A stretch of 64,000 bases of DNA from positions 9,527-73,526 of the forward strand of contig DATAUK010000015.1 of assembly GCA_036268295.1 (NCBI GenBank). The letters run 5' to 3'. Shown here in pieces: positions 7,848 to 25,802 of the stretch. The translations under genes and the position numbers were made by a program. The notes beneath the pieces are model-generated. The model did not search any database. It was not told the DNA's origin and worked only from the letters and a program-made list of their open reading frames with translations. The DNA is from Mycobacteriales bacterium. GTDB lineage: Bacteria; Actinomycetota; Actinomycetes; JAFAQI01. Position 1 is the first letter of the stretch; each line of letters opens with the position of its first letter.

Positions 7848-7902
7848 GGTCACAGCCTGCCAGGTGCTTACGTTGTGGGCGCGGGGCGCCGATGGTGAAC
7901 AG

Positions 7903-8553
7903 GTGTCCGGCAACACCCGGTATGAGCTGGCGCCGCTCGGTCGCCGAGGCCTGGCCTGGCTGATCGACATGACACTCGGCGGTCTGGTCGCTGTCACCGT
8001 CATCAAGGTCGCCGGTGGTGAGCGTGATCTGGGGGCGGTCTGGGATCTGGTGGTGTTCAAGTCGGTCAACGGCCAGGTCGGCCAGCAGCTCTCGGCCGCC
8101 ACGAACCCTGGCGCCGCCGGCCTCGCGGCGATCCGCCCGGTCGCCGGCCTGCTGGGGATCGTGACCGGGCTGTTTGTCGCCGCCGTCGCCTACCGCGTGG
8201 TGACCAACGCCAAGTGGGGGGCCGGGTTCGGCAAGACCATCCTCGGGCTGCAGGTCGTGGTCGATCGCGGCGAGCCGGAGCAGCGAGTCACCGACGGCCG
8301 GGTGTCGCAGGTGCCCGGCTGGGCCAAGGCCTGGAAGCGCTGGGCGGTGCCGCAGGTGTCGAGCTTGATCCCGCTGCCGATGACCGGCCTGCTCGGCTAT
8401 CTGCCGGCGCTGCGAGATCCGCGCCGCCGAGGGCTTCACGACCTCGCCGCCGGGACAGTGGTGATCGACCTGCGAGCGGTCGTCGCGCCGCGCGCCAGCC
8501 GGGATGCGGTCGCGGGGTCAGGCGCCCAGGACTTCTATCTCACGCTGCGTTAA
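7903..8553 (+). CDS. RDD family membrane protein
   Basis: LAPLGRRGLAWLID, GKTILGLQVV, RRGLHDLAAGTVVI; start codon approximate. Confidence 0.82.
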   Translation: MSGNTRYELAPLGRRGLAWLIDMTLGGLVAVTVIKVAGGERDLGAVWDLVVFKSVNGQVGQQLSAATNPGAAGLAAIRPVAGLLGIVTGLFVAAVAYRVVTNAKWGAGFGKTILGLQVVVDRGEPEQRVTDGRVSQVPGWAKAWKRWAVPQVSSLIPLPMTGLLGYLPALRDPRRRGLHDLAAGTVVIDLRAVVAPRASRDAVAGSGAQDFYLTLR

Positions 8554-8639
8554 GACAGATCATTCACCGAGGTCTCAAGGTGTGATGGATGTGTTGCCTA
8601 TCCGGTGCACATTCGCGATGCAAACCGGTGGAAGACTGG

Positions 8640-8672
8640 CAGGACCCGTGGCCGGGTCGGCTACGGGTCCTG
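8640..8672. terminator. Hairpin just 3' of tRNA-His
   Basis: CAGGACCCGTGGCC / GGCTACGGGTCCTG 14-bp arms with wobble pairing, 5-nt loop. Confidence 0.7.
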
Positions 8673-8674
8673 GG

Positions 8675-8751
8675 TGGGGTGAGTGACGGGACTTGAACCC
8701 GCGACATCCGGGACCACAACCCGGCGCTCTACCAGCTGAGCTACACCCACC
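8675..8751 (-). tRNA. tRNA-His(GTG)
   Basis: Cloverleaf: G-1 plus GTGGGTG/CACTCAC acceptor stem, anticodon arm CCGGG-TTGTGGT-CCCGG, GGTTCAAGTCC T-arm, C73, encoded CCA. Confidence 0.97.
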
Positions 8752-8786
8752 ATCGCGACCGGCGTTAAGGCCCGGCTGCGTCGTGC

Positions 8787-8792
8787 AGTCTA
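8787..8792 (-). promoter_or_regulatory. Probable -10 hexamer (TAGACT) for tRNA-His
   Basis: TANNNT hexamer 36 nt upstream of the tRNA 5' end. Confidence 0.45.
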
Positions 8793-8800
8793 GCCACGGC

Positions 8801-9424
8801 TCAGCTCGGCGTACCAGCGTCGTCCGCAGACCCGCTCAACGCCGCGGCGGCGGCCTTGGCGGCGGTGCTGTCCGGCCCGGGCGCCGCTACCAGCACGGTG
8901 GCCCGGTAGTAGCGCAGCTCGTTGATGCTGTCGAGGATGTCCGCGAGCGCGCGGTGGCCACCGTTTTTGGCCGGCGCGTTGTAGTAGGCCCGCGGATACC
9001 AGCGCCGCGCCAGCTCCTTGATCGTGGAGACGTCGATCATCCGGTAGTGCAGGTGGTCATCGAGGCTCGGCATGTAACTCACGATGAACGACCGGTCGGT
9101 TGCGATCGTATTTCCACAAAGCGGCGCTTTGCGGCGTTCCGGTACGAACCGCTTGACGTAGTCGAGCACCTGTTCCTCGGCCTCGGCCACCGTCGTCGTC
9201 GCGGCCGCGATCGCCTCGAGCAGGCCTGAGGAGGTGTGCATGGTGCGAACGACGTCGTCCATGCCGGCCAGCTTGTCCGAATCGGCGGCGATGACGATGT
9301 CGAGGCCCTCGTCGAGCGGGTTGAGCTCGGCGTCGGTCACGATCACCGCGATCTCGACGAGTACGTCGTTCTGCGGATCAAGGCCGGTCATCTCGCAGTC
9401 GATCCAGACCAGGGCATCGGTCAT
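8801..9424 (-). CDS. orn: Oligoribonuclease
   Basis: LVWIDCEMTGLD, PLCGNTIATDRSF, LHYRMIDVSTIKELARRWYP, HRALADILDSINEL. Confidence 0.97.
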   Translation of the reverse strand: MTDALVWIDCEMTGLDPQNDVLVEIAVIVTDAELNPLDEGLDIVIAADSDKLAGMDDVVRTMHTSSGLLEAIAAATTTVAEAEEQVLDYVKRFVPERRKAPLCGNTIATDRSFIVSYMPSLDDHLHYRMIDVSTIKELARRWYPRAYYNAPAKNGGHRALADILDSINELRYYRATVLVAAPGPDSTAAKAAAAALSGSADDAGTPS

Positions 9425-9515
9425 GGCCGTGCCCAGAATCGGGGAAGACTCGCAGCGTCGTGGGTGTAGGCAAGCACCGCGACACTGTCCCACGCCTTAC
9501 GCTGATCATGGACAA

Positions 9516-9588
9516 GCGCCCGTAGCTCAGGGGATAGAGCAGGTGCCTTCTAAGCACTTGGCCGCAGGTTCGATTCCTGCCGGGCGCG
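9516..9588 (+). tRNA. tRNA-Arg(TCT)
   Basis: GCGCCCG/CGGGCGC acceptor stem, anticodon arm GGTGC-CTTCTAA-GCACT, GGTTCGATTCC T-arm; CCA not encoded. Confidence 0.95.
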
Positions 9589-9823
9589 CGCATCGAGGTC
9601 ACCACGGAGGCGAGCGGCTCACAGCCGTTCGCGGCTACCTATCCTGTGGATACGCTGTGAGGGTAGATATCGGCGATCGAGTGGTTGACTGCACCCGCAC
9701 TCGGTGTTGCTGAAGATCAGTTGTCAGCGCATACACAACGAAATGGCGACCGTCGGTGATGAGTGGCAACGTGCGGCGAGGGCTCAGGTCCGCAGTGCGA
9801 TGTGACATGACCGGTGTCCTACA

Positions 9824-11779
9824 ATGACGCCGCTCGTCACCGTTGTCGTCCCGGTTTACAACGCGGGGCTTTCACTCGAGTCCGGAGTGAGCGCCCTGCT
9901 GGGCCAGACCATGTCGACGGCGGACTTCGAGGTCATCTACGTCGACGACGGGTCCACTGACGGCAGCGGTGCGCGGCTCGACGAGCTAGCAGCGGAGCAT
10001 CCGCACATCTCGGTGCACCACATCCCGAATTCCGGCTGGCCGGGTCGCCCCCGCAATATCGGTATCGACAACGCCCGCGGGCACTACGTGCAGTTCATGG
10101 ACCAGGACGACGCGCTGGGGAGCGAGGCCTTGGAGCGCCTCTACGCGTTCGCCACGGTCAGCGACGCGGACATCGTCGTCGGCAAGGTTGCGAGTGACTT
10201 TCGCCCGGTTCTGCATGAGTTGTTCCGTTCCGATCAGCGCGGGCGCACGCTGCGCGACTTCCCACTGCTGATCCGCTCGCTGACCCCCCACAAGATGTTC
10301 CGGGTCGAACTGTTGCGCGAGCATGGGATCCGCTTCCCCGAGGGCCCTCGCCGGCTCGAAGACCAGCCGTTCGTCACCGCGGCGTACTTCGCGGCGACCT
10401 CGATCGGCGTGCTGTCGAGCTATGTCTGCTACCTGTACCAGAAGCGGGAGGATGGCCAAAATTCCGCCGCCGGGATCTACGAACCGCGCGACTATTACCG
10501 CTACCTGCGAGAGGTTCTCGACATTGTCGAGGAGCACACCGAGCCCGGGGAGTTCCGCAACGTCCTGATGTCGCGCTGGATGAAGTCCGAGCTGATCGGG
10601 AGACTTCGCGGCCCGTTATACGTCGACGAAACGCGCGGCGGGTACCGCGAAGAGCATTTCAAAGAGGTTCGCCGGCTGGTCGAAGAGCGGTTTGACGACG
10701 AGATCATCGCCCTGCTCACGCCGGCGCTACGGGTGCGCGCCCACCTGATGCAAACCGGCGACGACCAGCAGATCGGCGAGCACTGGCGCGCCTACGACAA
10801 GGTCCGCCCGGACGTCACGCTCGAGAGCATGCGGTGGCGCGACGGCGCGCTGGAACTCAAGCTGTCAGCCTTGATGCGCGATGAGGCGGGCACCGGCGAC
10901 CCGCTCGCCTTCGAGGTCATCGACGGCCGCTACTACCTGACCGACCGCCAGCTTGGCATGCCGATTCCGCTCGCTGTGCGCGAGGCCACAGATGGCGTCG
11001 AGGCCGCGACCGCTGAAATGGTGCTCCGGGAGGCGTCGACCTACGCGGAGTATTACGTCCCCGGTGACTGGGTCGCCTGCGTCGAAGAGATCGGCGACCG
11101 GCTGGTGACGGTGCGTGTGACCGGCACTGTCACCCTCGACCCTGCCACGGTGTTGTTCGGGGACCCGCTGCGGACCGGCTCCTGGCGGATGCTCGTGCGG
11201 CTGACGATCGCCGGCTGGAATCGGACCGTGCGGATCGGGGTCAGCCGCGCCGACGAGGTGCCCAACGCCCTTGACGAGCTCTACCTGGTAGGTGCGAGGA
11301 CCCGGGTCTCCGTCACCGCGCCTGACGATGAGAACGTCGCGCTCCGCGTCGCCAAGTCTCCCGCTGAGGTGGAGGTGAAGGCGAAGTTGACCACACGCGA
11401 CCGCGCGACCGTTCTCGAGGTCCTGCCGCCGCCGCTGCTGGCCGTAGCGGCGCGATCTGTCTTGCCGACGGTCACCCTCGAGCTGCGCCGGATCGGCACG
11501 ACCCCGCTCCTGGTCACCGTGCCGGGCAGGCTCGACCCCAACGGGACCATCACGGTGGCGCTGCCCAGACGCACCCGAGTCCTTACTCGTGGTGTCTCGC
11601 TCGGGCGCTGGCGGCTTCGGCTCGTGGTGTCGACTGGGACCAGGAGCATCAAGCTGGTGATCGCATCGATTCTGCAAGTGCCTGGCCGGGGCGCGATCGC
11701 CCTGCTCGCTGAATCGGACCTGACCGGCAACGAGCCGGCGCCACTTCTGCGCCGCGTTCGTCGCATCGCCAGTCGCTGA
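9824..11779 (+). CDS. GT2 family glycosyltransferase, TarS/TarP-like, with large C-terminal beta-rich region
   Basis: VVVPVYN, YVDDGSTDGS, GWPGRPRNIG, FMDQDD (DxD), LEDQ, YLYQKREDG resembling TarS motifs. Confidence 0.88.
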   Translation: MTPLVTVVVPVYNAGLSLESGVSALLGQTMSTADFEVIYVDDGSTDGSGARLDELAAEHPHISVHHIPNSGWPGRPRNIGIDNARGHYVQFMDQDDALGSEALERLYAFATVSDADIVVGKVASDFRPVLHELFRSDQRGRTLRDFPLLIRSLTPHKMFRVELLREHGIRFPEGPRRLEDQPFVTAAYFAATSIGVLSSYVCYLYQKREDGQNSAAGIYEPRDYYRYLREVLDIVEEHTEPGEFRNVLMSRWMKSELIGRLRGPLYVDETRGGYREEHFKEVRRLVEERFDDEIIALLTPALRVRAHLMQTGDDQQIGEHWRAYDKVRPDVTLESMRWRDGALELKLSALMRDEAGTGDPLAFEVIDGRYYLTDRQLGMPIPLAVREATDGVEAATAEMVLREASTYAEYYVPGDWVACVEEIGDRLVTVRVTGTVTLDPATVLFGDPLRTGSWRMLVRLTIAGWNRTVRIGVSRADEVPNALDELYLVGARTRVSVTAPDDENVALRVAKSPAEVEVKAKLTTRDRATVLEVLPPPLLAVAARSVLPTVTLELRRIGTTPLLVTVPGRLDPNGTITVALPRRTRVLTRGVSLGRWRLRLVVSTGTRSIKLVIASILQVPGRGAIALLAESDLTGNEPAPLLRRVRRIASR

Positions 11780-12130
11780 CGGACAGGCTCGGCAAAATCG
11801 GGCACGGATGGCGGTCGGCGCCGTCACGATGGCCAGAGATGCTGCGACAACCTTTCTTGACAACGATATCGCCAGCCAGGTTTGTCAGAGAATCAGCGCA
11901 AATGTTCGACGGATCGTCGAAATTCCTCCAGTGTCCCGCGCGCGTCGTCGAAGAGGAGGTCAGTCAGATCGCTACCGTTCGAATGTTCAAGCCCGCGCCG
12001 TCATCTGGCGATGGTGAGCCGTGTCCCAGCTCCTACCTGGTGGGGGTTCGTTGCCAATGCGAACCATTAGCCCCGCCATGCCCCGATGGGCTCGCTGCCC
12101 GAGGGCGAAAGTGGCGTGAAGCGGCCGGCA

Positions 12131-15100
12131 ATGAGCCGGCGCGGGCCGCGTCGCCTGTTGGGGCACGCGGTCTCACTCGTCGCGATCGTTGCCTCGACTT
12201 TGACCGGATTCGTCGCGCTCGCACCGAGCGCCAGCGCGGCGACGCCGACCTGCAACTTCGCTACTGCGGGCACCGGCACCTACGCGAGCACGCTGTGCTG
12301 GTTTGACCTGTCGAGCTATAACGCCGCGCTGGCCACCGGGGCGGGCGGCCAGCAGATGACGATGACGATCCCCGGCGGCTATTCGATCAGCTTCACGCTC
12401 AAGGTGACCGGCGGCGCGGTCAAGGCGGCGGCGCTGCCGACGTACACCCAGGCATTCCTCGGCAACAGCGGCTACACCGGGGTCGCGGGCGAGCCGGCGC
12501 TCTACCAGACGGCGAACGCCACCACCACGACGGCCACGCTGAGCGGGATCAGCCTGACCAGCTCCGCGGGAACCACGCTCACCGGCTACTCCCTCGTGGG
12601 CGCCGATGCCGAGTCCTCGGACAGCGGCGAGTCGATCACCTGGACCTCCACCACTGCGCTGGCCTCGCTGGAGACGCTCGGCAACGCCTGCGGCGGCGGA
12701 TTCACCGGCGCCGGCTCGACGACGGTGACCTGCACCGGCAAGAGTGTTGGCAACAAGACGGGCGACGCGATCCTCGCCTCCGAGGCCCCCTCCACGTTCA
12801 GCCAGACGATGGTCGGCGGCGGCCTGCAGGGGATCGGCTTCGGTGTCCTGATCTCCCAGCTCGAGTTCAACAAGACCGTCGTTAACGGCCTCGGCAGCGA
12901 CGCGTTCAAGATCTCGGTCGCGGACGGCTCCGGCACCGTGCTCGACACCGCCAACACGAACGGCACGGCGAGTGCCTCGACCGGCGTCATCCCGGTCCTC
13001 GCCGGCACCGACGGCGAGAAATACACGCTGTCCGAGTCCGCCACGGTCGGCACGCTTGCGAACTACACGCAGTCGTGGAGTTGCACCCGAAATGGGGGCG
13101 CTGATGCCACGTTGCCCACCGGGGCGGCGGGTACGACGGCGAAGGTCACGCTCAACATCGGCGACTCGGTCATCTGCACGATCACCAACACCGCGCTGAG
13201 CACCACGCTCGGGCTGGTCAAACATGCCGGCACGCCGGTCGACGTCAACCACGACGGGCTGGTCGACACCGGCGACACGATCCCGTACACATTCACCGTC
13301 ACCAACAACGGCGCGATCGCGATCACCAACATCTCAGTGACCGACGCCAAGGTCGGCGCCGTCACCTGCCCGCTCAACAGCCTCGCGGTCGGCGCCTCGC
13401 AGACGTGTACGGCGAACGCCCCCTACACCGTCACCGCGGCCGACGTGACCGCCGGCGCCGTCACCAACACCGCTACTGCGACGGCGTCGGTGTCAGGCAC
13501 GACGGCCATCACGACGTCGCCGCCGTCGAGCACGACCACCCCGACCACCGCGCCGGCACCCTCGCTCAAGCTGACCAAGTCGGTCTCGCCGGCGACGGTG
13601 ACGACAGCCGGACAAATCGCTACTTATTCGTTCGTGATCAAAAACACCGGCAACGTCACGATCACCAACGCCGGCGTGACCGAGTCCGCCTTCACCGGCA
13701 GCGGCACGCTTTCCGCGATCACCTGCCCGGCCGGCGCGGCGTCGATGGCGCCGAATGCCAGCGTGACCTGCACCGCGACCTACCCGGTGTCCCAGGCCGA
13801 CCTCAACGCCGGCTCGGTGTCCAACACCGCGAGCGCGGCCGGCAAGAGCCCGGCGGGTGCGACGATCACCTCGGCGAGCTCGACCGCCAAGATCACCGTC
13901 ACCCAGAACCCTGCGCTCACGCTCAACAAGTCGGTGTCGCCGACCTCGGCGATGACCGCCGGTCAGGTCCTCACCTACTCCTTCGTCATCACCAACACCG
14001 GCAACCTGACGCTGACCAGCGCGGCGGTCAACGAGGGGACATTCACCGGCTCCGGCACGCTGTCGGCAGCGACCTGCCCGGCCGGCGCAGCCGCAATGGC
14101 GCCAGGCGCCCAGATCACCTGCACAGCGACCTACACCGTGACCCAGGCCGACATCGATGCCGCCACGATCACCAACACCGCGACCGCGACCGCAACCCCG
14201 CCGGCTGGCGTCACCGGGCCCACCGTGTCGCCGCCGTCCTCGGTCACCATGCCGGAGCCGGCCAACCCGGCCATGACGATCAAGAAGACCGTCACACCGA
14301 CCACGGTCACCACAGCCGGCCAAACGCTGAGCTACAGCTTCCTGATCACCAACACCGGCAACGTGACGATCCACACCGTCGCGGTTGCCGAGACGGCATT
14401 CACCGGCAGCGGCACACCCTCGGCGGTGACCTGCCCGGCGGGTGCCGCCTCGCTGGCACCGGGCGCCCAGGTCACCTGCACCGGCACCTACGTCGTCACC
14501 CAGGCCGACATGGATGCGGGCTCGGTCTCCAACACCGCGGACGCGACCGGAAGGAGCCCTTCCGGCGGCACGGTCACCTCACCGGGGTCAACGGCGCTTG
14601 CCACAGTGGTGGCCAACCCCGCGCTCGCAGTCGACAAGACCGCGTCACCGACCTCGGTCTCGGCGGCCGGCCAGACCATCACCTACTCGTTCCTCATCAC
14701 CAACACCGGCAACCAGACACTGCACGGCGTGACCGCGGTCGAGACGCTGTTCAGCGGCACCGGCACGATGTCGGCACTCAGCTGCCCGGCCGGCGCCGCG
14801 TCGCTCGCCCCGGTTGCCCAGGTGACGTGTACGGCGACCTATGTGGTGACCCAGGCTGACGTCGACGCCGGCTCGGTGTCGAACACCGCGGCTGCCACCG
14901 GCAAGTCACCGTCGGCCGCCACGATTACCTCGGCGACCTCGAATGCCACGGTGACGGTCACCAACGCGCCCGCGCTCACCGTCACCAAGTCCGTGCTGCC
15001 GACCTTGGTGTCGGCAGCTGGGCAGACCGTGACCTACTCCTTCCTGGTCAAGAACACCGGCAACCTGACGATGCACGCGGTCTCGATCAACGAGGGCGCC

Positions 15101-18100
15101 TTCACCGGTTCGGGCACGGTCTCCGCGGTGAGCTGCCCGGCCGGCAACATCGCCCCGAACGCGACCACGACGTGCACCGCGACGTACGTCGTCACCCAGG
15201 CGGACATGGACACCGGTTCGGTGTCCAACACCGCGACCGCCTCGGCGAAGAGCCCGGCCGGAGCCACGACGACCTCGGCGCCCTCGACGGTCAGTTTCAC
15301 GGCGACCAATGCGCCGGCACTCACGGTCACCAAGTCGGTGCTTCCGACCTCGGTTTCCACGCTCGGCCAGTCCGCGACCTTCTCGTTCCTGGTGAAGAAC
15401 ACCGGCAACGTCACGATGCACGGGATCACGATCAACGAGGGGGCGTTCACCGGCACCGGGACGCTCTCGGCGGTGAGCTGCCCGGCCGGCGCTGCCTCAC
15501 TCGCTCCGGCCGCGACCGTCACATGCACCGCCACTTACGCGATCACCCAGGCCGACCTCGATGCCGGCTCGGTCTCCAACACCGCCACGGCGTCCGGCTT
15601 GAACCCAGCCGGCGCGACCACGACCTCGGCGCCGTCGACCGTCTCGCTCACCACGACCGCACTCCCGGCGCTCACGGTCACCAAGTCGGTGCTGCCGACC
15701 TCGGTGAGCGCAGCCGGGCAAACCGTCACATACTCCTTCCTGGTCAGGAACACCGGCAACGTCACGATGACCGCGATCGGGATCACCGAGGGCGCCTTCA
15801 GCGGCACCGGCACGATGTCCGCGCTCAGTTGCCCGGCCGGAGCCGCGTCGCTCGCCCCGAACGCGAGCGTGACCTGCACCGCGACGTACGCCGTCACCCA
15901 GGCCGACATGGACGCCGGATCGGTGACCAACACCGCGACCGCGCACGGCAAGGACCCGGCCGGCGCCACGACGACCTCGTCCGGGTCGACCGCGACGTTG
16001 TCGGTCACCGCTCACCCGGTGCTCGATCTGGTCAAGTCGGCCGCGCCGATCGGACCGACCAACCTCAGCGTCGGCGAGGTCATCACCTACTCCTATCTGG
16101 TGACCAACGCCGGCAACGTGACGCTGTCCAACGGGGCAATCGACGAGGGGGAGTTCACCGGCCACGGCACGCTCTCGGCCGTGAGCTGCCCGGCTGGGAT
16201 GACCTCGATCGCCCCGACCGCAAGCTTCACCTGCACCGCGACGTACACCGTGACCCAGGCCGATGTCGACGCCGGGACGATCGCCAACACCGCGACCGCG
16301 GTCGCCAGCCCGCCGGCGGGCGTGACCGGGCCGACCATCTCCGCGCCGTCGACGGTCACCATGCCGGCGACCGACGAGCCGTCGCTGACGCTCCACAAGT
16401 CGGTGTCGCCCTCGTCGGTGACGGCCGCGGGCCAGACGGTGACGTACTCGTTCCTGCTGATCAACACCGGCAACGTGACGGTCGCCGGGGCCACGATCAA
16501 CGAAGGCGCATTCGGTGGCAGCGGGACGCTGTCGGCAATCAACTGCCCGGCCGGGATCTCGTCGATGGCACCCGGCGCCGAGGTGACCTGTACGGCGACC
16601 TATGCGGTGACTCAACCTGACGTCGACGCTGGATCCATCTCGAACTCTGCGACCGCCAGCGGAACCGATCCGCTCGGCGCGACCGTCACGGCGCCGACCT
16701 CGACCGCGACCTTGACGGCCACCGCGTCGCCGTCGCTGACGCTCACCAAGACCGCCTCTCCGACGACGGTGACCGCGGCGACGCAGACCGTTACCTACTC
16801 CTATCTGATCCGCAACACCGGCAACGTGACGCTCGGTGAGCCGACCGTCAACGAGACCGGCTTCAGCGGCACCGGCACGCTGTCGGCGCTGAGCTGCCCG
16901 CCGGCCGCGGCCTCGATCGCGCCGAACGCCGCCGTCACGTGCACCGCGACGTACGTCGTCACCCAGGACGACATGGACGCCGGCACGCTCACCAACACCG
17001 CAACGGTGACGGCGAGCCCGCCGTCCGGCCCGGCGATCACCTCGGCGCCCTCAAGCGTGACCGTGGCCGCGACCGCGAGCCCAGCGCTCACCGTGGCGAA
17101 GTCGGTGGCACCGACCTCGGTCTCGGCGGCCGGGCAGGGAGTGACGTACTCCTTCCTGATCACCAACACCGGCAACGTGACGATGCACGGTGTCTCGGTC
17201 GCCGAGGTGGCCTTCAGCGGCACCGGCACCCTGGGAACGCTCGGTTGCCCGGGCGCGATGTCGATGGCGCCCGCCGCCCAGGTGACGTGTACGGCGCCCT
17301 ACACCGTCACCCAGGCCGATATCGACGCCGGCACGGTGACGAACACCGCGCACGCGACCGGCACGAGCCCAGCCGGCGCGACGATCACCTCGCCCAACTC
17401 CTCGGCCACCTTGGCAGTGACCGCGACCCCGGCCCTCACAGTCACGAAGTCGGTCCTGCCGACCGCGGTGTCCGCGGCCGGCCAGTCGGTGACCTACTCG
17501 TTCGCGGTGAAGAACACCGGCAACCAGACATTGCATGCGATATCGGTCACCGAGGGAGCGTTCAGCGGCACCGGCACGCTCTCGGCGGCGACCTGCCCGC
17601 CCGGATCGTTGGCACCGAACGCGACGGCGACCTGCACTGCGACCTATACCGTCACCCAGGCAGACCTGGACGCCGGATCGGTGACCAACACCGCGACCGC
17701 GTCGGCGCTCGACCCGGCCGGCACCTCCCACACCTCCGCGCCGTCGACGGCGACCCTCGCTGTCACGGCGAACCCGAGGCTGACGGTTGCCAAGTCGGCG
17801 TCGCCCTCCGCTATCTCCGCGGTCGGCCAGACCGTGACCTACTCGTTCCTGCTGAGGAACACCGGCAACCAGACGATGACCGCCGCGACCGTCAACGAAG
17901 GCGCGTTCAGCGGCAGCGGGTCGCTGTCGGCAATCAGCTGCCCGGCGGGTGCGGCCTCGATCGCGCCGACCGCGACCGTCACCTGCACCGCGACCTACGT
18001 CGTCACCCAGGCTGACCTCGACGCCGGCACGCTCACCAACACCGCCACCGTGTCGGCCAAGGACCCGACCGGGTCCAACCACACCTCGCCGCCATCGTCC

Positions 18101-21100
18101 GCGACCGTCACGACCACGCCGGGTGCCGCGCTGACGATCAACAAGACCGCGTCGCCGTCGACCGTCGACACGGTCGGTCAGGTCGTGACCTACTCGTTCC
18201 TGATCACCAACACCGGCAACCTCACGCTCACCGGGGCGACCGTCGACGAGGGCGCGTTCAGCGGGAGCGGGCTGCTGTCCGCGGTCAGCTGCCCGGCGGG
18301 TGCGGCGTCGATGGCGCCGAACGCGACCGTGACGTGCACCGCGACGTACTCGATCACCCAGGCCGATCTGGATGCCGGGTCGGTGACCAACTCCGCCACC
18401 GTCGACGCGGCGCCGCCGGCCGGCTTCGTGGGTCCGATCGTGTCGGCACCGTCCTCGACGACAGTCACCGCGACCGCGGGGCCGGCGCTGACGGTCAGCA
18501 AGTCGGTCGCACCGACCTCGGTGTCAGCGGCCGGCCAGGGCGTGACCTACTCGTTCCTGGTGCACAACACCGGCAACCAGACGATCCACTCGGTGACGGT
18601 CAACGAGGGCGCGTTCAGCGGCACCGGGTCGCTGTCGGCGGCGACCTGCCCGGCCGGCGCGGCGTCGATGGCGCCCGCAGCGACGGTGACCTGCACCGCG
18701 ACGTACACCGTCACGCAGGCCGATATCGACGCCGGCTTGGTCACCAACACCGCCACGGTGAGCGGTAAGAACCCAGCCAACGTCAGCGTGACCTCAACGC
18801 CCTCGAGCGCGATGTTTGCGGTCGGCGCCGCGCCGGCGCTCACGGTCTCCAAATCGGTTCTGCCGACATCGGTGTCAGCGTCCGGCCAGGGCGTGACGTA
18901 CTCGTTCGCGGTGAGGAACACCGGCAACGTCACGCTGCACTCGGTGACGGTGAACGAGGGCGCGTTCAGCGGCACCGGCACGCCGTCAGCCGTCAGCTGC
19001 CCGGCGGGCGCCGCCTCGCTGGCGCCGAACGCGACCGTGACGTGTACGGCGACCTACACCGTGACCCAGGCGGACATCGACGCCGGCTCGGTGTCCAACA
19101 CCGCGACCGCGTCCGGCACCGACCCGAGCGGCACGACGCTCACCTCGGCGCCGTCGACCGTGACGCTTGCGGCACCGGCCGCGCCGGCGCTCACGGTCAC
19201 CAAGTCGGTCCTGCCGAACGCCGTCTCGGCGGTCGGTCAAGGCGTGACGTACTCGTTCGCGGTGAGGAACACCGGCAACGTCACGCTGCACGCGATCACG
19301 GTCAACGAGGGCGTGTTCAGCGGCACCGGCACACTGTCGGCGGCGACCTGCCCGGGCGGGCAGCTGGCACCGGGCGCGAGCGCGACCTGTACCGCGACCT
19401 ACACCGTCACGCAGGCCGATATCGACGCCGGCACGCTCACCAACACCGCGACCGTCTCGGGTACCGATCCGGCAAGCGTGGTCGCGACGTCGGCACCGTC
19501 GACGGCGACCGTGACCGCGGCGGCGAGCCCGTCGCTGACGGTCAGCAAGACCGCCTCGCCCACGACCGTCGTGGGCGCCGGCCAGCTGGTCAGCTATTCC
19601 TTCCTTGTCACCAACACCGGCAACGTCACGCTGCACGCGATCACGGTCAATGAGGGCGCGTTCAGCGGCACCGGCACGCTGTCGGCGGCGACCTGTCCCG
19701 GCGGGTCGCTGGCACCGAGCGCGAGCGCGACCTGCACCGCGACGTACACCGTCACGCAGGCCGATATCGACGCCGGCTCGATCTCCAACACCGCGACGGT
19801 GTCGGCGAAGGACCCGGCGAACGCGACCAGTACCTCGGTGCCCTCGACCGCGGTCGTGACCACGCTCGAGGGACCGGCGCTCACGCTCGACAAGACCGCC
19901 TCGCCTACCTCCGTCTCAACCGCCGGTCAGACGATCACGTACTCGTTCCTGATCACCAACACCGGCAACGCGACGTTGACCGGCGCGACGATCGACGAGG
20001 GCAATTTCACCGGCAGCGGGCTGCTGTCCGCGGTGAGCTGCCCGGCCGGGTCCGCGTCGATGGCACCGAACGCAACTGTGACCTGCACCGCGACCTATAC
20101 GGTCAGCCAGGCCGACATTGACGCCGGGTCGATCGCCAACACCGCCACCGCGGTCGCCACGCCGCCCTCCGACCTGGTCGGGCCGATCGTCTCACCGCCG
20201 TCGACTTCCGCGGTGAGCGTCGACGCGAACCCGGCGCTGACGGTCGTGAAGTCAGTGTCGCCGACCTCGGTCAGCGCCGCCGGTCAAGGCGTGACCTACT
20301 CGTTCCTCGTCACCAACACCGGCAACGTGACGATGCACGGGATCTCGGTCAACGAGGGCCCGTTCAGTGGCACCGGGACGCTGTCGAGCGCGACCTGCCC
20401 GCCCGGCTCACTGGCGCCGAGCGCGAGCGTGACCTGCACCGCGACCTACATCGTCACCCAGGCCGATCTCGACGCTGGATCGGTCTCGAACACCGCCACC
20501 GTCACCGGACTCGACCCGACCGGAGCTCCCGAGACCTCGTCACCGTCGACCGCAACGCTGAGCGCACCGGCGGCTCCGGCGCTGAGGATCCAGAAGACCG
20601 CGTCGCCGACCGCAGTGGACTCGGTCGGACAAACCGTGACGTATTCCTTCCTGGTGACCAACTCCGGCAACGTCACGATGCATGCGGTGACCGTGAACGA
20701 GGGCGCCTTCAGCGGCTCGGGCACGCTGTCGACAGCGAGCTGCCCGGCCGGCTCGCTGGCGCCGAGCGCGAGCGTGACCTGCACCGCGACGTACGACGTC
20801 ACGCAGGCCGACCTCGATGCCGGATCGGTGACCAACACCGCGACCGCCTCGGCGACCGACCCGACCGGCACGACGCTGGCTTCGGCGCCCTCGACGGCAA
20901 CCGTCAGCGTCACCGCTGAGCCGGGGCTGAGCCTGGTCAAGTCCGCGGGGCCGATCGGACCGGCGACGCTGACTCCCGGCGAGGTCATCACCTACTCGTT
21001 CCTGGTGACCAACACCGGCAACCTGACCATCACCGATGTCGGCATCGACGAGGGTGCGTTCAACGGCAGCGGTCTGCTCTCGGCGGTCAGCTGCCCGCCG

Positions 21101-22597
21101 GCCGCCGCGACACTGGCTCCTGGCGCAAGCGTGACGTGTACGGCGACCTACCCGGTGACCCAGTCCGACGTCGACCACGGCACCGTGGTCAACACCGCGA
21201 CGGCGACCGGCACGCCGCCGAGCTGGGCGCCGGGCCCGGTCGTCTCGCCGCCGTCGACGGTCACCATGCCGCAGCCCGCCTTGCCTGCGCTGACGCTGGA
21301 CCAGTCGGTGTCACCGACCATCGTGCATCACGCCGGGCAGCAGGTCACGTACTCGTTCGTCATGACCAACGGCGGGAACGTCACGCTCACCGCCGCGACG
21401 ATCGACGAGTCGACCTTCACCGGCACCGGCTCGATCTCCCCGGTCGACTGTCCGGCCGGCGCGAGCTCGATGGCGCCGCAGGCGCAAGTGACCTGTACCG
21501 CGACTTACCAGGCCACCCAGGCCGACATCAACGCCGGCCAGGTGAGCAACATCGCGACGGCGGCGGCGGTCCCGCCGGGCGGGACGCGTCATTCGGTGGT
21601 CTCGCCGCCCTCGACCGCGGTCTTCACCGCAACCGCGCCGCCGGCGATCAGGATCGTGAAGACCGCGAGCCCGATGACGATCTCCCGCCGCGGGCAGACC
21701 ATCACCTACTCGTTCCGGGTCACCAACACCGGCAACGTCACATTGCGCGGCGTCCGCGTCGACGAGGGCGCCTTCAGCGGCAGCGGCACGCTGTCGGCGG
21801 TCCGCTGCCCGGCGGCCGCTGGCGCACTCGCGCCCGGGGCGAGCGTGACCTGCACGGCAAGCTATGTTGTCACGCAGGCCGACATCGACGCCGGTTCACT
21901 GTCGAACACGGCGACCGCGTCGGCGCTCGACCCGGCCGGCAATCCGCTCACCTCACCGCCGTCGACGGCCAAGCTGCGCTCAACCGCGATCAGCAAGCTC
22001 GGCCTGGTCAAGTCGGCGCACGCCGTCGACGTCGACCATGACGGCGTGATCGACAAGGGTGACCGCATCGACTGGTCGCTGGTGGCCTCCAACCGCGGCG
22101 GGACGACGATCACCGATCTCACCGTCGTCGATCCCTCGGCCGGCACCGTCAACTGCCCGCGTACCACGCTCGCGCCAGGCGCCTCGATGAGCTGCAGCGT
22201 GGCGCCGCACACCGTCACCGCCGCCGATGTCCTCGCCGGCCACGTCCGCAACGTCGCGACCGCGACCGGCACCGTGATGGGCACGGTTCAGATCACTTCG
22301 GCGGCCGCGCGGGCAGCTGCGGTGGTCCGCCCGACCCCGGGGGCCGTCATCGTGCCCCCGCTGCCGTTCACCGGATTCGGTGCGACGATCGCACTCACCA
22401 AGGACGGTGTCCTCGCGCTCGCGCTCGGCGGGCTGCTGCTGGCGGTTTCGATGCCGCGCCGCCGCCGGCTGCTGCCGGCGCTCGATAGCGCGCCAACCAG
22501 GGGACCGGCCTGGGTGTGGCGCAGGCTCGGCCTCGCTCGCCGGTTGGTCACTCGGCGCAATCTGCCGGCCGGCTGGCGACTGGCTGCTCGGGAGTGA
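12131..22597 (+). CDS. Giant sortase-anchored fibrillar adhesin: signal peptide, CshA/CshB-like head, SpaA-like domain, 26 DUF7507/DUF11-type repeats, LPFTG sorting signal
   Basis: Uninterrupted frame 12086-22597; signal ...APSASAA; head GTYASTLCWFDL; repeats LxxxKS..GQxxTYSFxxxNTGN..E..C..C TATY..QAD.DAG...NTAT; LPFTG (22361-22375), hydrophobic stretch and RRRR. Start could be 12116 or 12131. Confidence 0.88.
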   Translation: MSRRGPRRLLGHAVSLVAIVASTLTGFVALAPSASAATPTCNFATAGTGTYASTLCWFDLSSYNAALATGAGGQQMTMTIPGGYSISFTLKVTGGAVKAAALPTYTQAFLGNSGYTGVAGEPALYQTANATTTTATLSGISLTSSAGTTLTGYSLVGADAESSDSGESITWTSTTALASLETLGNACGGGFTGAGSTTVTCTGKSVGNKTGDAILASEAPSTFSQTMVGGGLQGIGFGVLISQLEFNKTVVNGLGSDAFKISVADGSGTVLDTANTNGTASASTGVIPVLAGTDGEKYTLSESATVGTLANYTQSWSCTRNGGADATLPTGAAGTTAKVTLNIGDSVICTITNTALSTTLGLVKHAGTPVDVNHDGLVDTGDTIPYTFTVTNNGAIAITNISVTDAKVGAVTCPLNSLAVGASQTCTANAPYTVTAADVTAGAVTNTATATASVSGTTAITTSPPSSTTTPTTAPAPSLKLTKSVSPATVTTAGQIATYSFVIKNTGNVTITNAGVTESAFTGSGTLSAITCPAGAASMAPNASVTCTATYPVSQADLNAGSVSNTASAAGKSPAGATITSASSTAKITVTQNPALTLNKSVSPTSAMTAGQVLTYSFVITNTGNLTLTSAAVNEGTFTGSGTLSAATCPAGAAAMAPGAQITCTATYTVTQADIDAATITNTATATATPPAGVTGPTVSPPSSVTMPEPANPAMTIKKTVTPTTVTTAGQTLSYSFLITNTGNVTIHTVAVAETAFTGSGTPSAVTCPAGAASLAPGAQVTCTGTYVVTQADMDAGSVSNTADATGRSPSGGTVTSPGSTALATVVANPALAVDKTASPTSVSAAGQTITYSFLITNTGNQTLHGVTAVETLFSGTGTMSALSCPAGAASLAPVAQVTCTATYVVTQADVDAGSVSNTAAATGKSPSAATITSATSNATVTVTNAPALTVTKSVLPTLVSAAGQTVTYSFLVKNTGNLTMHAVSINEGAFTGSGTVSAVSCPAGNIAPNATTTCTATYVVTQADMDTGSVSNTATASAKSPAGATTTSAPSTVSFTATNAPALTVTKSVLPTSVSTLGQSATFSFLVKNTGNVTMHGITINEGAFTGTGTLSAVSCPAGAASLAPAATVTCTATYAITQADLDAGSVSNTATASGLNPAGATTTSAPSTVSLTTTALPALTVTKSVLPTSVSAAGQTVTYSFLVRNTGNVTMTAIGITEGAFSGTGTMSALSCPAGAASLAPNASVTCTATYAVTQADMDAGSVTNTATAHGKDPAGATTTSSGSTATLSVTAHPVLDLVKSAAPIGPTNLSVGEVITYSYLVTNAGNVTLSNGAIDEGEFTGHGTLSAVSCPAGMTSIAPTASFTCTATYTVTQADVDAGTIANTATAVASPPAGVTGPTISAPSTVTMPATDEPSLTLHKSVSPSSVTAAGQTVTYSFLLINTGNVTVAGATINEGAFGGSGTLSAINCPAGISSMAPGAEVTCTATYAVTQPDVDAGSISNSATASGTDPLGATVTAPTSTATLTATASPSLTLTKTASPTTVTAATQTVTYSYLIRNTGNVTLGEPTVNETGFSGTGTLSALSCPPAAASIAPNAAVTCTATYVVTQDDMDAGTLTNTATVTASPPSGPAITSAPSSVTVAATASPALTVAKSVAPTSVSAAGQGVTYSFLITNTGNVTMHGVSVAEVAFSGTGTLGTLGCPGAMSMAPAAQVTCTAPYTVTQADIDAGTVTNTAHATGTSPAGATITSPNSSATLAVTATPALTVTKSVLPTAVSAAGQSVTYSFAVKNTGNQTLHAISVTEGAFSGTGTLSAATCPPGSLAPNATATCTATYTVTQADLDAGSVTNTATASALDPAGTSHTSAPSTATLAVTANPRLTVAKSASPSAISAVGQTVTYSFLLRNTGNQTMTAATVNEGAFSGSGSLSAISCPAGAASIAPTATVTCTATYVVTQADLDAGTLTNTATVSAKDPTGSNHTSPPSSATVTTTPGAALTINKTASPSTVDTVGQVVTYSFLITNTGNLTLTGATVDEGAFSGSGLLSAVSCPAGAASMAPNATVTCTATYSITQADLDAGSVTNSATVDAAPPAGFVGPIVSAPSSTTVTATAGPALTVSKSVAPTSVSAAGQGVTYSFLVHNTGNQTIHSVTVNEGAFSGTGSLSAATCPAGAASMAPAATVTCTATYTVTQADIDAGLVTNTATVSGKNPANVSVTSTPSSAMFAVGAAPALTVSKSVLPTSVSASGQGVTYSFAVRNTGNVTLHSVTVNEGAFSGTGTPSAVSCPAGAASLAPNATVTCTATYTVTQADIDAGSVSNTATASGTDPSGTTLTSAPSTVTLAAPAAPALTVTKSVLPNAVSAVGQGVTYSFAVRNTGNVTLHAITVNEGVFSGTGTLSAATCPGGQLAPGASATCTATYTVTQADIDAGTLTNTATVSGTDPASVVATSAPSTATVTAAASPSLTVSKTASPTTVVGAGQLVSYSFLVTNTGNVTLHAITVNEGAFSGTGTLSAATCPGGSLAPSASATCTATYTVTQADIDAGSISNTATVSAKDPANATSTSVPSTAVVTTLEGPALTLDKTASPTSVSTAGQTITYSFLITNTGNATLTGATIDEGNFTGSGLLSAVSCPAGSASMAPNATVTCTATYTVSQADIDAGSIANTATAVATPPSDLVGPIVSPPSTSAVSVDANPALTVVKSVSPTSVSAAGQGVTYSFLVTNTGNVTMHGISVNEGPFSGTGTLSSATCPPGSLAPSASVTCTATYIVTQADLDAGSVSNTATVTGLDPTGAPETSSPSTATLSAPAAPALRIQKTASPTAVDSVGQTVTYSFLVTNSGNVTMHAVTVNEGAFSGSGTLSTASCPAGSLAPSASVTCTATYDVTQADLDAGSVTNTATASATDPTGTTLASAPSTATVSVTAEPGLSLVKSAGPIGPATLTPGEVITYSFLVTNTGNLTITDVGIDEGAFNGSGLLSAVSCPPAAATLAPGASVTCTATYPVTQSDVDHGTVVNTATATGTPPSWAPGPVVSPPSTVTMPQPALPALTLDQSVSPTIVHHAGQQVTYSFVMTNGGNVTLTAATIDESTFTGTGSISPVDCPAGASSMAPQAQVTCTATYQATQADINAGQVSNIATAAAVPPGGTRHSVVSPPSTAVFTATAPPAIRIVKTASPMTISRRGQTITYSFRVTNTGNVTLRGVRVDEGAFSGSGTLSAVRCPAAAGALAPGASVTCTASYVVTQADIDAGSLSNTATASALDPAGNPLTSPPSTAKLRSTAISKLGLVKSAHAVDVDHDGVIDKGDRIDWSLVASNRGGTTITDLTVVDPSAGTVNCPRTTLAPGASMSCSVAPHTVTAADVLAGHVRNVATATGTVMGTVQITSAAARAAAVVRPTPGAVIVPPLPFTGFGATIALTKDGVLALALGGLLLAVSMPRRRRLLPALDSAPTRGPAWVWRRLGLARRLVTRRNLPAGWRLAARE
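13198..22344 (+). repeat. Array of 26 intragenic ~345-365 bp repeats (Ig-like domains of ~115-121 aa)
   Basis: Counted by hand from the translation; each has one Cys pair and the NxG and NxAT motifs. Confidence 0.9.
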
Positions 22598-22624: not shown

Positions 22625-22682
22625 TAGCGGCCGGGTCACCCCGGCCTTGAATTGACGCAGTGGCCGGTCCAGCCGGCCGCGG

Positions 22683-22820
22683 CTATACGCGCCGGCCCGA
22701 GAGCGCGTGAATGACGAAGACGATCAGGGCGATGATCAGTCCGAGCCAGAGGATGTGCGCGACGAAGGCGCCGAGTCCGGCGAATACCAGCAGCAAGAGA
22801 ATTGCAACGATGAGCAACAC
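22683..22820 (-). CDS. Small hydrophobic two-TM protein (45 aa), missing from the ORF track
   Basis: GGAGG RBS 5 nt before GTG; MLLIVAILLLLVFAGLGAFVAHILWLGLIIALIVFVIHALSGRRV then TAG. Confidence 0.8.
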   Translation of the reverse strand: MLLIVAILLLLVFAGLGAFVAHILWLGLIIALIVFVIHALSGRRV

Positions 22821-22865
22821 GGGGACCTCCGGGGTCCGTTGTCGGCTGGGCGGTCGAGAACCGGC

Positions 22866-24350
22866 CTACCCCGCCAGCGGCGACTTTATGTCCGCCGGTT
22901 GTGACACAAAGTTGCGAGATGGTGCAACCGGTGTGACAGTGGCCAAAACCGCCGCCGGTGCCCGGGTCAACAGGGCGGCCGCGACCGCAGCCGCGGCCAC
23001 GAAGAACGTGATGATCATCTCGAGGGCGTGACGGTAGGGCGTCAGCGAGCCGGGAGCATGGCCCGCGGCGAGTACGCCGATCAGGGCGGCGACGCCGAGA
23101 ACCGATCCGACCTGACGGGCCATGTTGAGCACACCGCTTCCGGTGCCGAACCATGCCGGCGGCAGCGCTGCGGTGCCCACTCCGAGCAACGAGGGAATCG
23201 TCAGGCCGACGCCCATGCCGCCGATCAGCTGCGCCGGGAGCAGGTGGCTGGCGTAGGCATGCGAAGCCTGCAGGCCGTGCAGCCACAGCCCTTGCGATCC
23301 GGCATTGACCAGCGCGCCGAGCACGGCAACCCGCCCGGCGCCACCGATTCGGACCGCCAGCCTTGGTGCGACGATCCGGGCGAACGGCAAGACGCAGAGC
23401 GGACCCGGCGCGATCGCAAGTCCGGCGCGGACCGCCGAGTAGTGCCATTCGCCGGTCAGGAACTCGACCGAGTTGAGGACGAAAGCCCCGAAACCGGCGT
23501 AATAGAGGATGGAGACCGCGAAGGCCCCGCTGAATGAGCGCAATCGCAGCAGCGGAAGCTCGATAATCGGCGCCGGATGGCGGGCCGAGTGGGCGAGGAC
23601 GGCCGCGATCCCGGCGACGGCGAGCACCGCAATCCCCAGCACGTTGAACGAGAGCCAGCCCCACTCCGGCGCCTTGACCATCGCCAGCGCGAGCAGCCCG
23701 ACCGAGGCGGCAACCAGGAGCGCGCCGATGATGTCTGGTCGCGGGTGGGCATTCGGGTCTCGGCTTTCCGGGATGGCGCGGTGCGCCAGCGCGAGTGCGA
23801 CCAGGCCGACCGGGACGTTGACCCAGAAGACCAGCCGCCAGCTCTCCTGGACAAGCAGGCCGCCGACGACCGGCCCGAGGCCGGCGCCGAGCGCCCCGAC
23901 TGCCGACCAGGTGCCGATGGCCCGGGCGCGACCAGCCGGCGGCACTACCGCGAGCAGCAGCGACAGTGAGGTCGGCACCATCATGCCCGCGCCGACCGCC
24001 TGCAGCACGCGTGCCGCGACGAGCGCGATGACGTCCGGTGCGACGCCGCAGATGGCGGATCCGATCGTGAACGCGAGCAGCCCGGTGCTGAACACCCGGC
24101 GACGCCCGATGCGGTCGGCCCAACGGCCGGCGGGCACGAGCACCGCCGCGAACGCGATCGTGTAGCCGTTGAGCACCCAGGACAGCGCGCCGAGGCTGGT
24201 GCCCCCGAAGTCGTGCCCGATGTAGGGGAACGCGAGATTGACGATGAACAGGTCGAGGCTGGACATGAAAACGCCGAGTGAGAGCACCGCGACGGCGATG
24301 GCCGCCGGCGAGAGCCTTCGATGGGTCATAGCGGGGTCGGCGAGCGTCAT
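22866..24350 (-). CDS. DHA2 (EmrB/QacA-like) MFS efflux transporter
   Basis: FMSSLDLFIVNLAFP, GRWADRIGRRR motif A, WRLVFWVNVPVG, about 14 TMs. Confidence 0.92.
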   Translation of the reverse strand: MTLADPAMTHRRLSPAAIAVAVLSLGVFMSSLDLFIVNLAFPYIGHDFGGTSLGALSWVLNGYTIAFAAVLVPAGRWADRIGRRRVFSTGLLAFTIGSAICGVAPDVIALVAARVLQAVGAGMMVPTSLSLLLAVVPPAGRARAIGTWSAVGALGAGLGPVVGGLLVQESWRLVFWVNVPVGLVALALAHRAIPESRDPNAHPRPDIIGALLVAASVGLLALAMVKAPEWGWLSFNVLGIAVLAVAGIAAVLAHSARHPAPIIELPLLRLRSFSGAFAVSILYYAGFGAFVLNSVEFLTGEWHYSAVRAGLAIAPGPLCVLPFARIVAPRLAVRIGGAGRVAVLGALVNAGSQGLWLHGLQASHAYASHLLPAQLIGGMGVGLTIPSLLGVGTAALPPAWFGTGSGVLNMARQVGSVLGVAALIGVLAAGHAPGSLTPYRHALEMIITFFVAAAAVAAALLTRAPAAVLATVTPVAPSRNFVSQPADIKSPLAG

Positions 24351-24440
24351 GTGCGGCCTCCATGGCGGGTCAGTCCGGATTCTGGATGGACGCTACCGGA
24401 GTTAGTCCGAAAAATCGACTGACTGGCGTATGCTGCTGTC

Positions 24441-25025: not shown

Positions 25026-25802
25026 TCAATGCTGGCGGTGGTGGCGCTTGGCTCGAGCCGGTTTCGGGCGGGCGGCGACGACCAACCGGGCACCGATCAG
25101 CAGTATCGCGACCGCGACCACGGCCAGTTGTGTGAGGTCGCTGCCGCCGGTCATCGGCAGCGCCGGCGCCGCGGCCGCCGAGCTGGCGCTCACCGACGGC
25201 GACGGTTTCGGCGTCGTGCTGTGGCGGTGCGTCGGTGTCGGTGTCGGTGTCGGGGTGGCCGAGTGCGTGACGGTCCGGGTCGGCGTGGGTGTCGGCGACG
25301 GGCTCGGTGCGACGACCGGGATCGTGTCGCTCGCGTCGGCGGTGTCGTCGCAGACCTGCGCGTTCGGCTTCGCCCGGCGAGCACCCGAGGACTGCCCCTG
25401 GATGCCTACCCGCTCCTCAACGTGGCAGTAGTCAGTCTCGTCGGACGGGTCGCCGACCGCATTCGGATCGACGGTGATCGCAATGGTGGTGTCGCCGGCG
25501 ATGATGGTGTCGTCCTCACAGGTCAGCGTCTGACCCGCGGCCGCGCAGGTGTAGTCCGCCGCCACGGTGCTGACGTAGGTCAATGAGTCAGGCAAGGTGT
25601 CGGTGATCGTGACCGTGCCCCGCGCGTCATCAGCCAGATATTGGGCATCGATCGTGATCGTGCCCTGCTGCCCGACGACGAACGGGTCGGGTGAATGGCT
25701 GATGTTGAGGTCGACGTTGGAGTCCGCGAACGCGGCACTCGGCGAGACGAGGACCAGCAGGCCAGCCGCCAGCGCGAGAACACTCAAGCGCCCTGCGCGC
25801 AC
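25026..25802 (-). CDS. Secreted LPxTG-anchored protein with one DUF11-like domain and a Pro/Thr linker
   Basis: Signal peptide ...SAAFA; VTITDTLPDSLTYVS..YTC..QTLTC; (PT)n linker; LPMTG, TM and basic tail. Confidence 0.8.
   Translation of the reverse strand: MRAGRLSVLALAAGLLVLVSPSAAFADSNVDLNISHSPDPFVVGQQGTITIDAQYLADDARGTVTITDTLPDSLTYVSTVAADYTCAAAGQTLTCEDDTIIAGDTTIAITVDPNAVGDPSDETDYCHVEERVGIQGQSSGARRAKPNAQVCDDTADASDTIPVVAPSPSPTPTPTRTVTHSATPTPTPTPTHRHSTTPKPSPSVSASSAAAAPALPMTGGSDLTQLAVVAVAILLIGARLVVAARPKPARAKRHHRQH

Follow-up and report, generated by a model that had tools for sequence, protein, structure and literature searches.

A 64,000-nucleotide stretch of a Mycobacteriales bacterium (GenBank assembly GCA_036268295.1, contig DATAUK010000015.1, positions 9,527 to 73,526; hereinafter the window) carries on its forward strand a gene (12131–22597) for a protein of 3488 amino acids (aa). 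We interpret this protein, at a probability of about 0.78, as a fibrillar adhesin and sortase substrate from a soil actinobacterium, with a CshA_NR2-like head and a stalk of 26 tandem domains that would be locked by intramolecular isopeptide bonds. The open reading frame is uninterrupted from 12086 (3503 aa) in a high-GC window (66–71%), and the public gene call (P0004) begins at Met16, i.e., at nucleotide 12131. Its layout is that of a fibrillar adhesin, with a signal peptide, an N-terminal head, a repetitive stalk, and a C-terminus combining an LPXTG motif with hydrophobic and basic segments. The protein is a real surface fibre of an uncultured soil actinobacterium, predicted from its sorting signal to be anchored in the cell wall.

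In order along the chain, a Sec-type signal peptide (aa 16–51, 12131–12238; MSRRGPRR...APSASA, then ATP) is predicted to be cleaved after Ala51, as the aligned N-termini of homologues likewise end in A-x-A. It is followed by an all-β head (aa 52–257, 12239–12856), a CnaB-like SpaA_3 domain (PF20674; aa 258–371, 12857–13198), and the 26 repeats (aa 372–3419). The repeats comprise an N-terminal cap domain (R01, 13199–13555), 24 core domains of 115–119 aa each (R02–R25, 13556–21985), and a C-terminal cap domain (R26, 21986–22342). The cell-wall sorting signal (22361–22597) consists of LPFTG (22361–22375, aa 3426–3430), a hydrophobic segment, RRRR, a 42-aa tail, and the stop codon. The 58 cysteines of the protein fall exactly into 29 within-domain pairs with none left unpaired, and threonine and serine together make up 30% of its residues. 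The longest exact DNA repeat inside the gene is shorter than 60 bp, and the repeat array is therefore unlikely to be an assembly collapse or artefact. A genome-wide scan found this to be the only DUF7507 gene of the assembly.

Pfam searches recovered 26 stretches of DUF7507 (PF24346) in the stalk (whole-protein E = 0), with all 26 repeats scoring 68–141 bits against a cut-off of 27 bits; the hidden Markov model (HMM) of DUF11 overlapped 14 of them, and thus both of the repeat families that an earlier note on this DNA had proposed for an HMM scan do match. Further matches to LRR_5, HYDIN, integrin, and similar Pfam models were set aside as low-complexity or immunoglobulin (Ig)-like cross-matches with no qualifying stretch. 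With the invariant Cys-Pro as cutting point, the repeats were excised and aligned (n=26). This alignment showed a lysine in the first strand of 25 repeats, a mid-domain acidic residue in all 26 (glutamate in 24, aspartate in R01 and R26), an asparagine at the bond position in all 26, and a single Cys-Pro...Thr-Cys pair with a spacing of 13–15 residues in every repeat, thereby confirming the counts of Lys, acid, Asn, and Cys pair that the earlier note had read off the translation. The sole departure is R24 (21281–21637, aa 3066–3184), where the lysine is replaced by Gln3073 (CAG at 21302–21304) and the Glu, Asn, and Cys pair are retained.

The same pattern extends well beyond this protein: the Lys/acid/Asn arrangement is maintained in six homologous proteins (78 domains) and at 27 loci of many Actinomycetota (206 domains). 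The Cys pair is present in ~95% of the latter domains, with six having the triad and lacking the Cys pair. The triad residues hardly vary among homologues, too little for a test of covariation. In a subgroup of orthologous adhesins (P0005–P0007 and many other loci), Asp replaces Asn at the bond position and Asp is the catalytic acid; by these residues, the CnaA-like domains of this subgroup would be bonded Lys to Asp and not Lys to Asn. Within the stalk, the core repeats R02–R25 share 47–77% pairwise identity. R01 and R26 are 47% identical to each other and ~28–43% identical to the rest (R26 to the core ~28–37%). These two form a separate cap subtype, in which the acid is Asp (Asp420 and Asp3349, respectively) and an inserted D-V-N/D-H-D-G-x-x-D loop (D-V-N-H-D-G-L-V-D in R01, D-V-D-H-D-G-V-I-D in R26) resembles the DxDxDG calcium-binding motif. 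The same cap loop marks the first repeat in every homologue that was aligned or inspected.

DUF7507 was built from AlphaFold models flagged by the program Isopeptor and has been renamed CLIPPER_2 (Costa et al., 2025, Protein Sci 34:e70342; PMC12617251). Its reference triad, Lys72/Asp112/Asn152 in A0A2I2KYV6, places the acid and the amide at +40 and +80 from the lysine; the spacing here is +41/+82 in R01 and +35 to +37/+82 to +84 in the other repeats. Domains of the CnaA-like type typically form Lys-Asn cross-links, the bonded residues lying on the first and the penultimate strands of opposing sheets (Costa et al., 2025). An AlphaFold2 model of repeat R08 (aa 1193–1311), computed with the 26-repeat alignment as input (predicted local distance difference test [pLDDT] 92.2), has about seven strands (4–11, 21–30, 36–46, 69–77, 87–97, 103–105, and 109–115) packed into a compact Ig-like sandwich, with two short helices. 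In this model K8 lies in the first strand (4–11), E43 in the third (36–46), and N90 in the penultimate main strand (87–97), positions that fit the CnaA-like rule; in the numbering of the whole protein these residues are K1200, E1235, and N1282. To this strand assignment our evidence on the triad geometry adds the register of the neighboring apolar residues: K8 is flanked at i±2 by L4/V6/V10, E43 by V39/V41/A45, and N90 by V88/A92/A94, which suggests that all three side chains point into the core. The conserved F46 and Y76 could serve as an aromatic cap. Thus, the modeling of one repeat that had been proposed as a check agrees with the claimed Lys/Asn/Glu layout as far as strand placement is concerned.

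Experimental precedent comes from the sister family DUF11 ("CLIPPER"), where the crystal structure 9IFR shows K715 bonded to N806, a catalytic Asp, and a disulfide within a CTTC tetrapeptide, with the isopeptide raising thermal and protease stability (Costa et al., 2025). In an hhalign comparison of our repeat profile with the 9IFR construct (sequence taken from the supplement of Costa et al., 2025), K8 is aligned with K715, and E43 with the acidic residue of the LNDT motif. Taken together, CLIPPER_2 membership, triad spacing, modeled strand placement, and the register of the apolar face agree in supporting the isopeptide layout put forward in the earlier note, and in 25 of the 26 stalk domains the lysine most likely reacts spontaneously with the asparagine, aided by the Glu or Asp.

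A number of observations pull the other way and have to be set against this interpretation. The hhalign match to 9IFR is weak (E = 0.013) and covers the first 42 columns only; a search of PDB sequences with the repeat profile did not retrieve 9IFR, and a Foldseek search of the PDB with the repeat model returned weak, generic Ig-like/E-set matches (best E = 1.3 × 10–3), with 9IFR outside the top 50. The acid is Glu in most repeats, whereas the CnaA-like reference triads are all Asp (Costa et al., 2025). Furthermore, the CLIPPER_2 bond is known from prediction, experimental proof being confined to DUF11 (9IFR), and many DUF7507 members are predicted to have no bond, 3,146 of the 5,318 DUF7507 domains in the AlphaFold Database (AFDB) being predicted as bonded (Costa et al., 2025). 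Together with R24, in which the Lys is missing and everything else is intact, the bonded fraction, the predicted status of the bond, and the use of Glu in place of the usual Asp favor a reading in which the Lys, Glu, and Asn are kept for packing and hydrogen bonding, few or no isopeptides form, and the disulfides alone stabilize the stalk. We consider this distinctly unlikely: an invariant charged Lys and Glu on an apolar face would otherwise be difficult to account for, the spacing of the three residues agrees with the triad predicted for the family, the triad is retained in ~280 homologous domains (including the Lys/Asp/Asp variant), and the bond is seen in a crystal of the homologous DUF11 fold. 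Two other candidate chemistries within the repeat were rejected. Thr79 and Gln80, as an ester-bond pair, are adjacent residues by or in a short helix (80–85) and are T-A in R01 and R26; Asp82, as the catalytic acid, stands at Asn–8, and the acid of the family sits at Lys+40. Likewise, the PDB sequence matches obtained with the repeat and head profiles (BspA-type LRR, FabG, and uL14) were dismissed as spurious.

The course from these residues to a working fibre, spanning bond and disulfide formation, mechanics, stalk length, and adhesion, we infer as follows for the isopeptide-locked adhesin. The Sec system would export the protein, and the LPFTG signal would attach its C-terminus to peptidoglycan, leaving the NR2-like β-sandwich as a binding domain at the tip. 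Below the head would come SpaA_3 and then the 26 CnaA-like, Ig-like CLIPPER_2 domains, a stalk probably on the order of 100 nm. In 25 of these 26 domains the buried strand-1 Lys and the buried penultimate-strand Asn would form an amide across the β-sandwich with release of NH3, a reaction in which the buried strand-3 Glu (Asp in the two caps) would assist. The C57–C72 disulfide would tie the segment that follows strand 3, a loop with a short helix, to the strand after it, likely serving folding and, in soil, stability to heat and proteases. When the fibre is pulled, only ~7 N-terminal and ~29 C-terminal residues per domain would be extensible, making a "shock absorber" of the CnaA type.

The two cross-links are not equivalent in this scheme. 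The order of the residues in the repeat is K8 < C57 < C72 < N90, and the disulfide loop is thus nested inside the isopeptide loop. Consequently, once the isopeptide has formed, the disulfide would bear no load, and its expected role is in folding and in stability to heat and proteases and not in tensile strength. The description of the repeats as doubly cross-linked is therefore chemically right, but the two links are nested and would not add up under tension. Co-occurrence of the two bonds has been predicted before: 1,099 (34.9%) of the AFDB DUF7507 domains predicted as bonded also have a predicted disulfide (Costa et al., 2025, supplement), as do 41.3% of the isopeptide domains in Actinomycetota (Costa et al., 2025). 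With regard to disulfide formation, the genome encodes a VKOR homologue (E = 1.7 × 10–28); no Thioredoxin_4 protein was found in it. VKOR is part of an actinobacterial oxidative-folding route.

The loss of the Lys in R24 is probably real because a contig from another soil sample (X3) has the same CAG codon. The one difference between that contig and the window is A>T at 21300, which turns Asp3072 into Val. As a long shot, R24 might act as a built-in extensible "fuse", unfolding almost fully under load and limited by its disulfide alone, and the Glu-catalyzed CLIPPER_2 domains with a nested disulfide might constitute a structurally uncharacterized class usable as an orthogonal Lys-tag/catcher. 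In the same part of the array, Logan contigs from two soil runs contain a 714-bp back-joint (exactly two repeats, with a 37-base side) over 20986–21699; this joint points either to populations that vary in repeat number or to an artefact of the de Bruijn graph where a word is shared.

Between the head and the stalk, the SpaA_3 domain was detected with E = 1.4 × 10–17 (64 bits). Its Lys263/Glu317/Asn368 triad lies on the first, middle, and last strands, a CnaB-type layout, and is conserved along with the Cys333–Cys364 pair in seven aligned homologues, the acid being Asp in one of them. SpaA_3 is a predicted isopeptide family in which 195 of 196 domains with a predicted bond (99.5%) also have a predicted disulfide (Costa et al., 2025, supplement). 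Judging from these residues, the domain probably forms an isopeptide of its own via K263/E317/N368.

The head contains the motif GTYASTLCWFDL at aa 64–75, invariant G-A-D-A-E and W motifs, the invariant residues D174 and E176, and two Cys pairs (C56–C71 and C202–C216). When the N-terminal 376 aa were scanned directly with Pfam and NCBIfam, there was no match to CshA_NR2 at E ≤ 10, and a head profile found no solved relative among PDB sequences. Its relatives nevertheless provide the link: one of them (P0013), 60% identical to the head plus SpaA_3, passes the Pfam threshold of CshA_NR2 (PF18651) with 49.5 bits over model positions 2–195 of 196, and among 72 head relatives scanned, 32 match CshA_NR2 (best E = 3.6 × 10–17) and 33 match SpaA_3. 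By transitive homology, the head is accordingly classed as a remote CshA_NR2-like domain. It is also widely distributed, a profile of the head alone retrieving 730 representative proteins at E ≤ 1 × 10–3 among 1.84 billion. In proteins of ~470–550 aa (P0054, P0067, and similar), the head domain is C-terminal. A type IV pilin N-methylation motif was detected in 8 of the 72 scanned relatives, a set that includes such proteins, and display of the head on pilin-like scaffolds may thus occur as well. An AlphaFold2 model of the head plus SpaA_3 (pLDDT 84.8) gave the Spy0128 pilin as its best Foldseek match, with UafA and PitA also recovered, all at low template modeling (TM)-scores.

The CshA/CshB-like head claimed in the earlier note therefore stands only as a remote NR2-like homology reached through relatives, but membership of the protein in the CshA family does not follow with it: Pfam and NCBIfam scans detected no CshA repeats (PF19076/TIGR04225), no NR1, and no GEVED domain in the adhesin. 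An NR2-like head normally precedes a GEVED domain, and high mutability is described for the CshA/B_NR2-like (PAD) fold, which has been shuffled among many stalks, Actinobacteria accounting for 24% of its occurrences (Barringer et al., 2023; PMC10952558). Since the gene comes from soil metagenomes, where no animal host is involved, fibronectin is unlikely to be the ligand and the suggested link to streptococcal fibronectin binding is implausible for this bacterium.

The anchoring of the fibre is the part of the proposal for which the genome itself gives a conflicting signal. No sortase was found in the 84%-complete assembly (2.87 Mb, 68 contigs) with PF04203, with NF033747, or by tblastn with a same-genus sortase, and this speaks against a sortase substrate; 20 of 20 relatives encode one. 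In two same-genus genomes, a gene for a 236-aa sortase lies ~300 bp upstream of the adhesin orthologue (within the region 8439–10560 of locus L045, and on the reverse strand in L046), whereas the corresponding interval of the window (7865–12249) is occupied by tRNA-His, a gene for an RNase T-like exonuclease, tRNA-Arg, and a gene for a TarS-like glycosyltransferase. In the relative, the sortase is flanked by a gene whose orthologue here marks the extreme end of a different contig (C47:189168–190193). The complete same-genus orthologue has 12 repeats as against 26 here and ends in PPLPFTGFG...RRR with a 10-aa tail. In the window, 42 residues follow RRRR (22472–22594), a cytoplasmic tail of unusual length among sortase substrates.

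The missing sortase, the replaced upstream interval, and the tail of 42 as against 10 residues would all suit a protein that is held by its C-terminal transmembrane helix with no sortase processing, the dedicated sortase having been lost from the locus. Against this, which we regard as very unlikely, the assembly is incomplete and fragmented, the LPFTG motif is exactly conserved between the protein and its orthologue, and the genome codes for four or more other proteins of the LPxTG type (P0003 in the window and at least three elsewhere), which argues for an existing sortase. For the last of these reasons, we think that the sortase is simply missing from the assembly.

What the anchored fibre would bind is a separate matter. 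The protein might not be an adhesin for foreign surfaces at all and instead act as an envelope spacer or as a fibre in cell–cell aggregation or in the biofilm matrix, its head binding a self-made polymer such as a cell-wall glycopolymer of the TarS-like glycosyltransferase. The latter (GT2 with a TarS-linker domain; 9824–11779) is encoded 350 bp upstream on the same strand; the source in soil metagenomes is in line with such a role, and DUF11 proteins of Methanothermobacter stabilize cell aggregates (Costa et al., 2025). The proximity of the two genes is, however, not preserved elsewhere. We compared 33 head-bearing loci from Amycolatopsis, Microbacterium, Microlunatus, Humibacter, Gaiellales, Acidimicrobiaceae, and others; the glycosyltransferase is beside none of them, and in the two same-genus orthologous loci a sortase takes its place. 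Moreover, the family of the head consists of ligand-binding adhesive domains shuffled onto many stalks (Barringer et al., 2023). We therefore hold this alternative to be unlikely. Along the same lines, adjacency to the glycosyltransferase being absent from all 35 related loci leaves a dedicated role in glycosylating the Thr/Ser-rich adhesin unsupported. A conserved module of glycosyltransferase, adhesin, and small LPxTG protein was likewise rejected, as neither neighbor has a homologue in the 33 related or the two same-genus loci.

Comparison with characterized systems places the adhesin closest to the CLIPPER_2 proteins. As in these, all of its 26 repeats lie above the family threshold and are predicted to adopt an Ig-like sandwich of about seven strands with the triad at the family positions; they are arrayed in tandem as the stalk of a long secreted protein that also has a head and an LPXTG anchor, and a disulfide accompanies the triad. 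The differences are the Glu in 24 of 26 repeats where the reference triad has Asp, the 26 copies in 3,488 aa, the fixed, nested C-P...T-C disulfide, and the cap repeats with their DxDxDG-like loop. The DUF11 (PF01345) domain in 9IFR, from the Acinetobacter silvestris protein B9T28_05395, is a related E-set, CnaA-like domain that also combines an isopeptide with a disulfide. It has nine strands and a tetrapeptide CTTC disulfide in its last strand, outside the isopeptide loop, and comes from a Gram-negative host, whereas the repeat of the adhesin has seven main strands and a disulfide loop of 13–15 residues inside the isopeptide loop, the similarity between the two being marginal (E = 0.013).

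With CshA/CshB of Streptococcus gordonii, the protein shares an N-terminal β-sandwich head, a repetitive stalk, and an LPXTG anchor; it differs in having no disordered NR1, GEVED, or CshA repeats, in its CLIPPER_2 stalk, and in its soil habitat. The Streptococcus pyogenes pilin Spy0128 (3B2M), although the best Foldseek match of the head plus SpaA_3 (E = 1.9 × 10–5), is similar with a TM-score of just ~0.3, and the adhesin is a single giant polypeptide in place of a sortase-polymerized pilus; no pilin motif was seen in it, none having been specifically searched for.

The family, its predicted isopeptide, the co-occurring disulfide, and the shuffled NR2-like heads were all published in 2023 and 2025. 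Hence, the current understanding is unchanged by the adhesin, which is a large, ordinary member of its kind. It is modestly interesting for its Glu catalyst, fixed nested disulfide, cap repeats, natural Lys-less repeat, and missing sortase. It also shows that in soil Actinomycetota a CLIPPER_2 stalk can bear a CshA_NR2-like head. Should the predicted bonds form, a single polypeptide would contain 26 isopeptides (25 repeats and SpaA_3) and 29 disulfides. It would then offer a test case for how nested cross-links split mechanical from chemical stability, for CLIPPER_2, a family so far resting on prediction, and for Glu-catalyzed CnaA-like chemistry as a source of new tag/catcher parts.

Downstream of the adhesin gene, the window encodes a major facilitator superfamily (MFS) transporter of 494 aa on the reverse strand (22866–24350) and an HxlR regulator on the forward strand. 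A 575-aa open reading frame on the reverse strand (22636–24363) was discarded as an Arg-rich wrong frame over the MFS gene with no Pfam match. Further on, a reverse-strand gene (25026–25802) codes for a secreted LPMTG protein of 258 aa with a single DUF11 domain. This second sortase substrate has a His at the position of the isopeptide Lys, retains a Cys pair, and has a Pro/Thr-rich linker after it.

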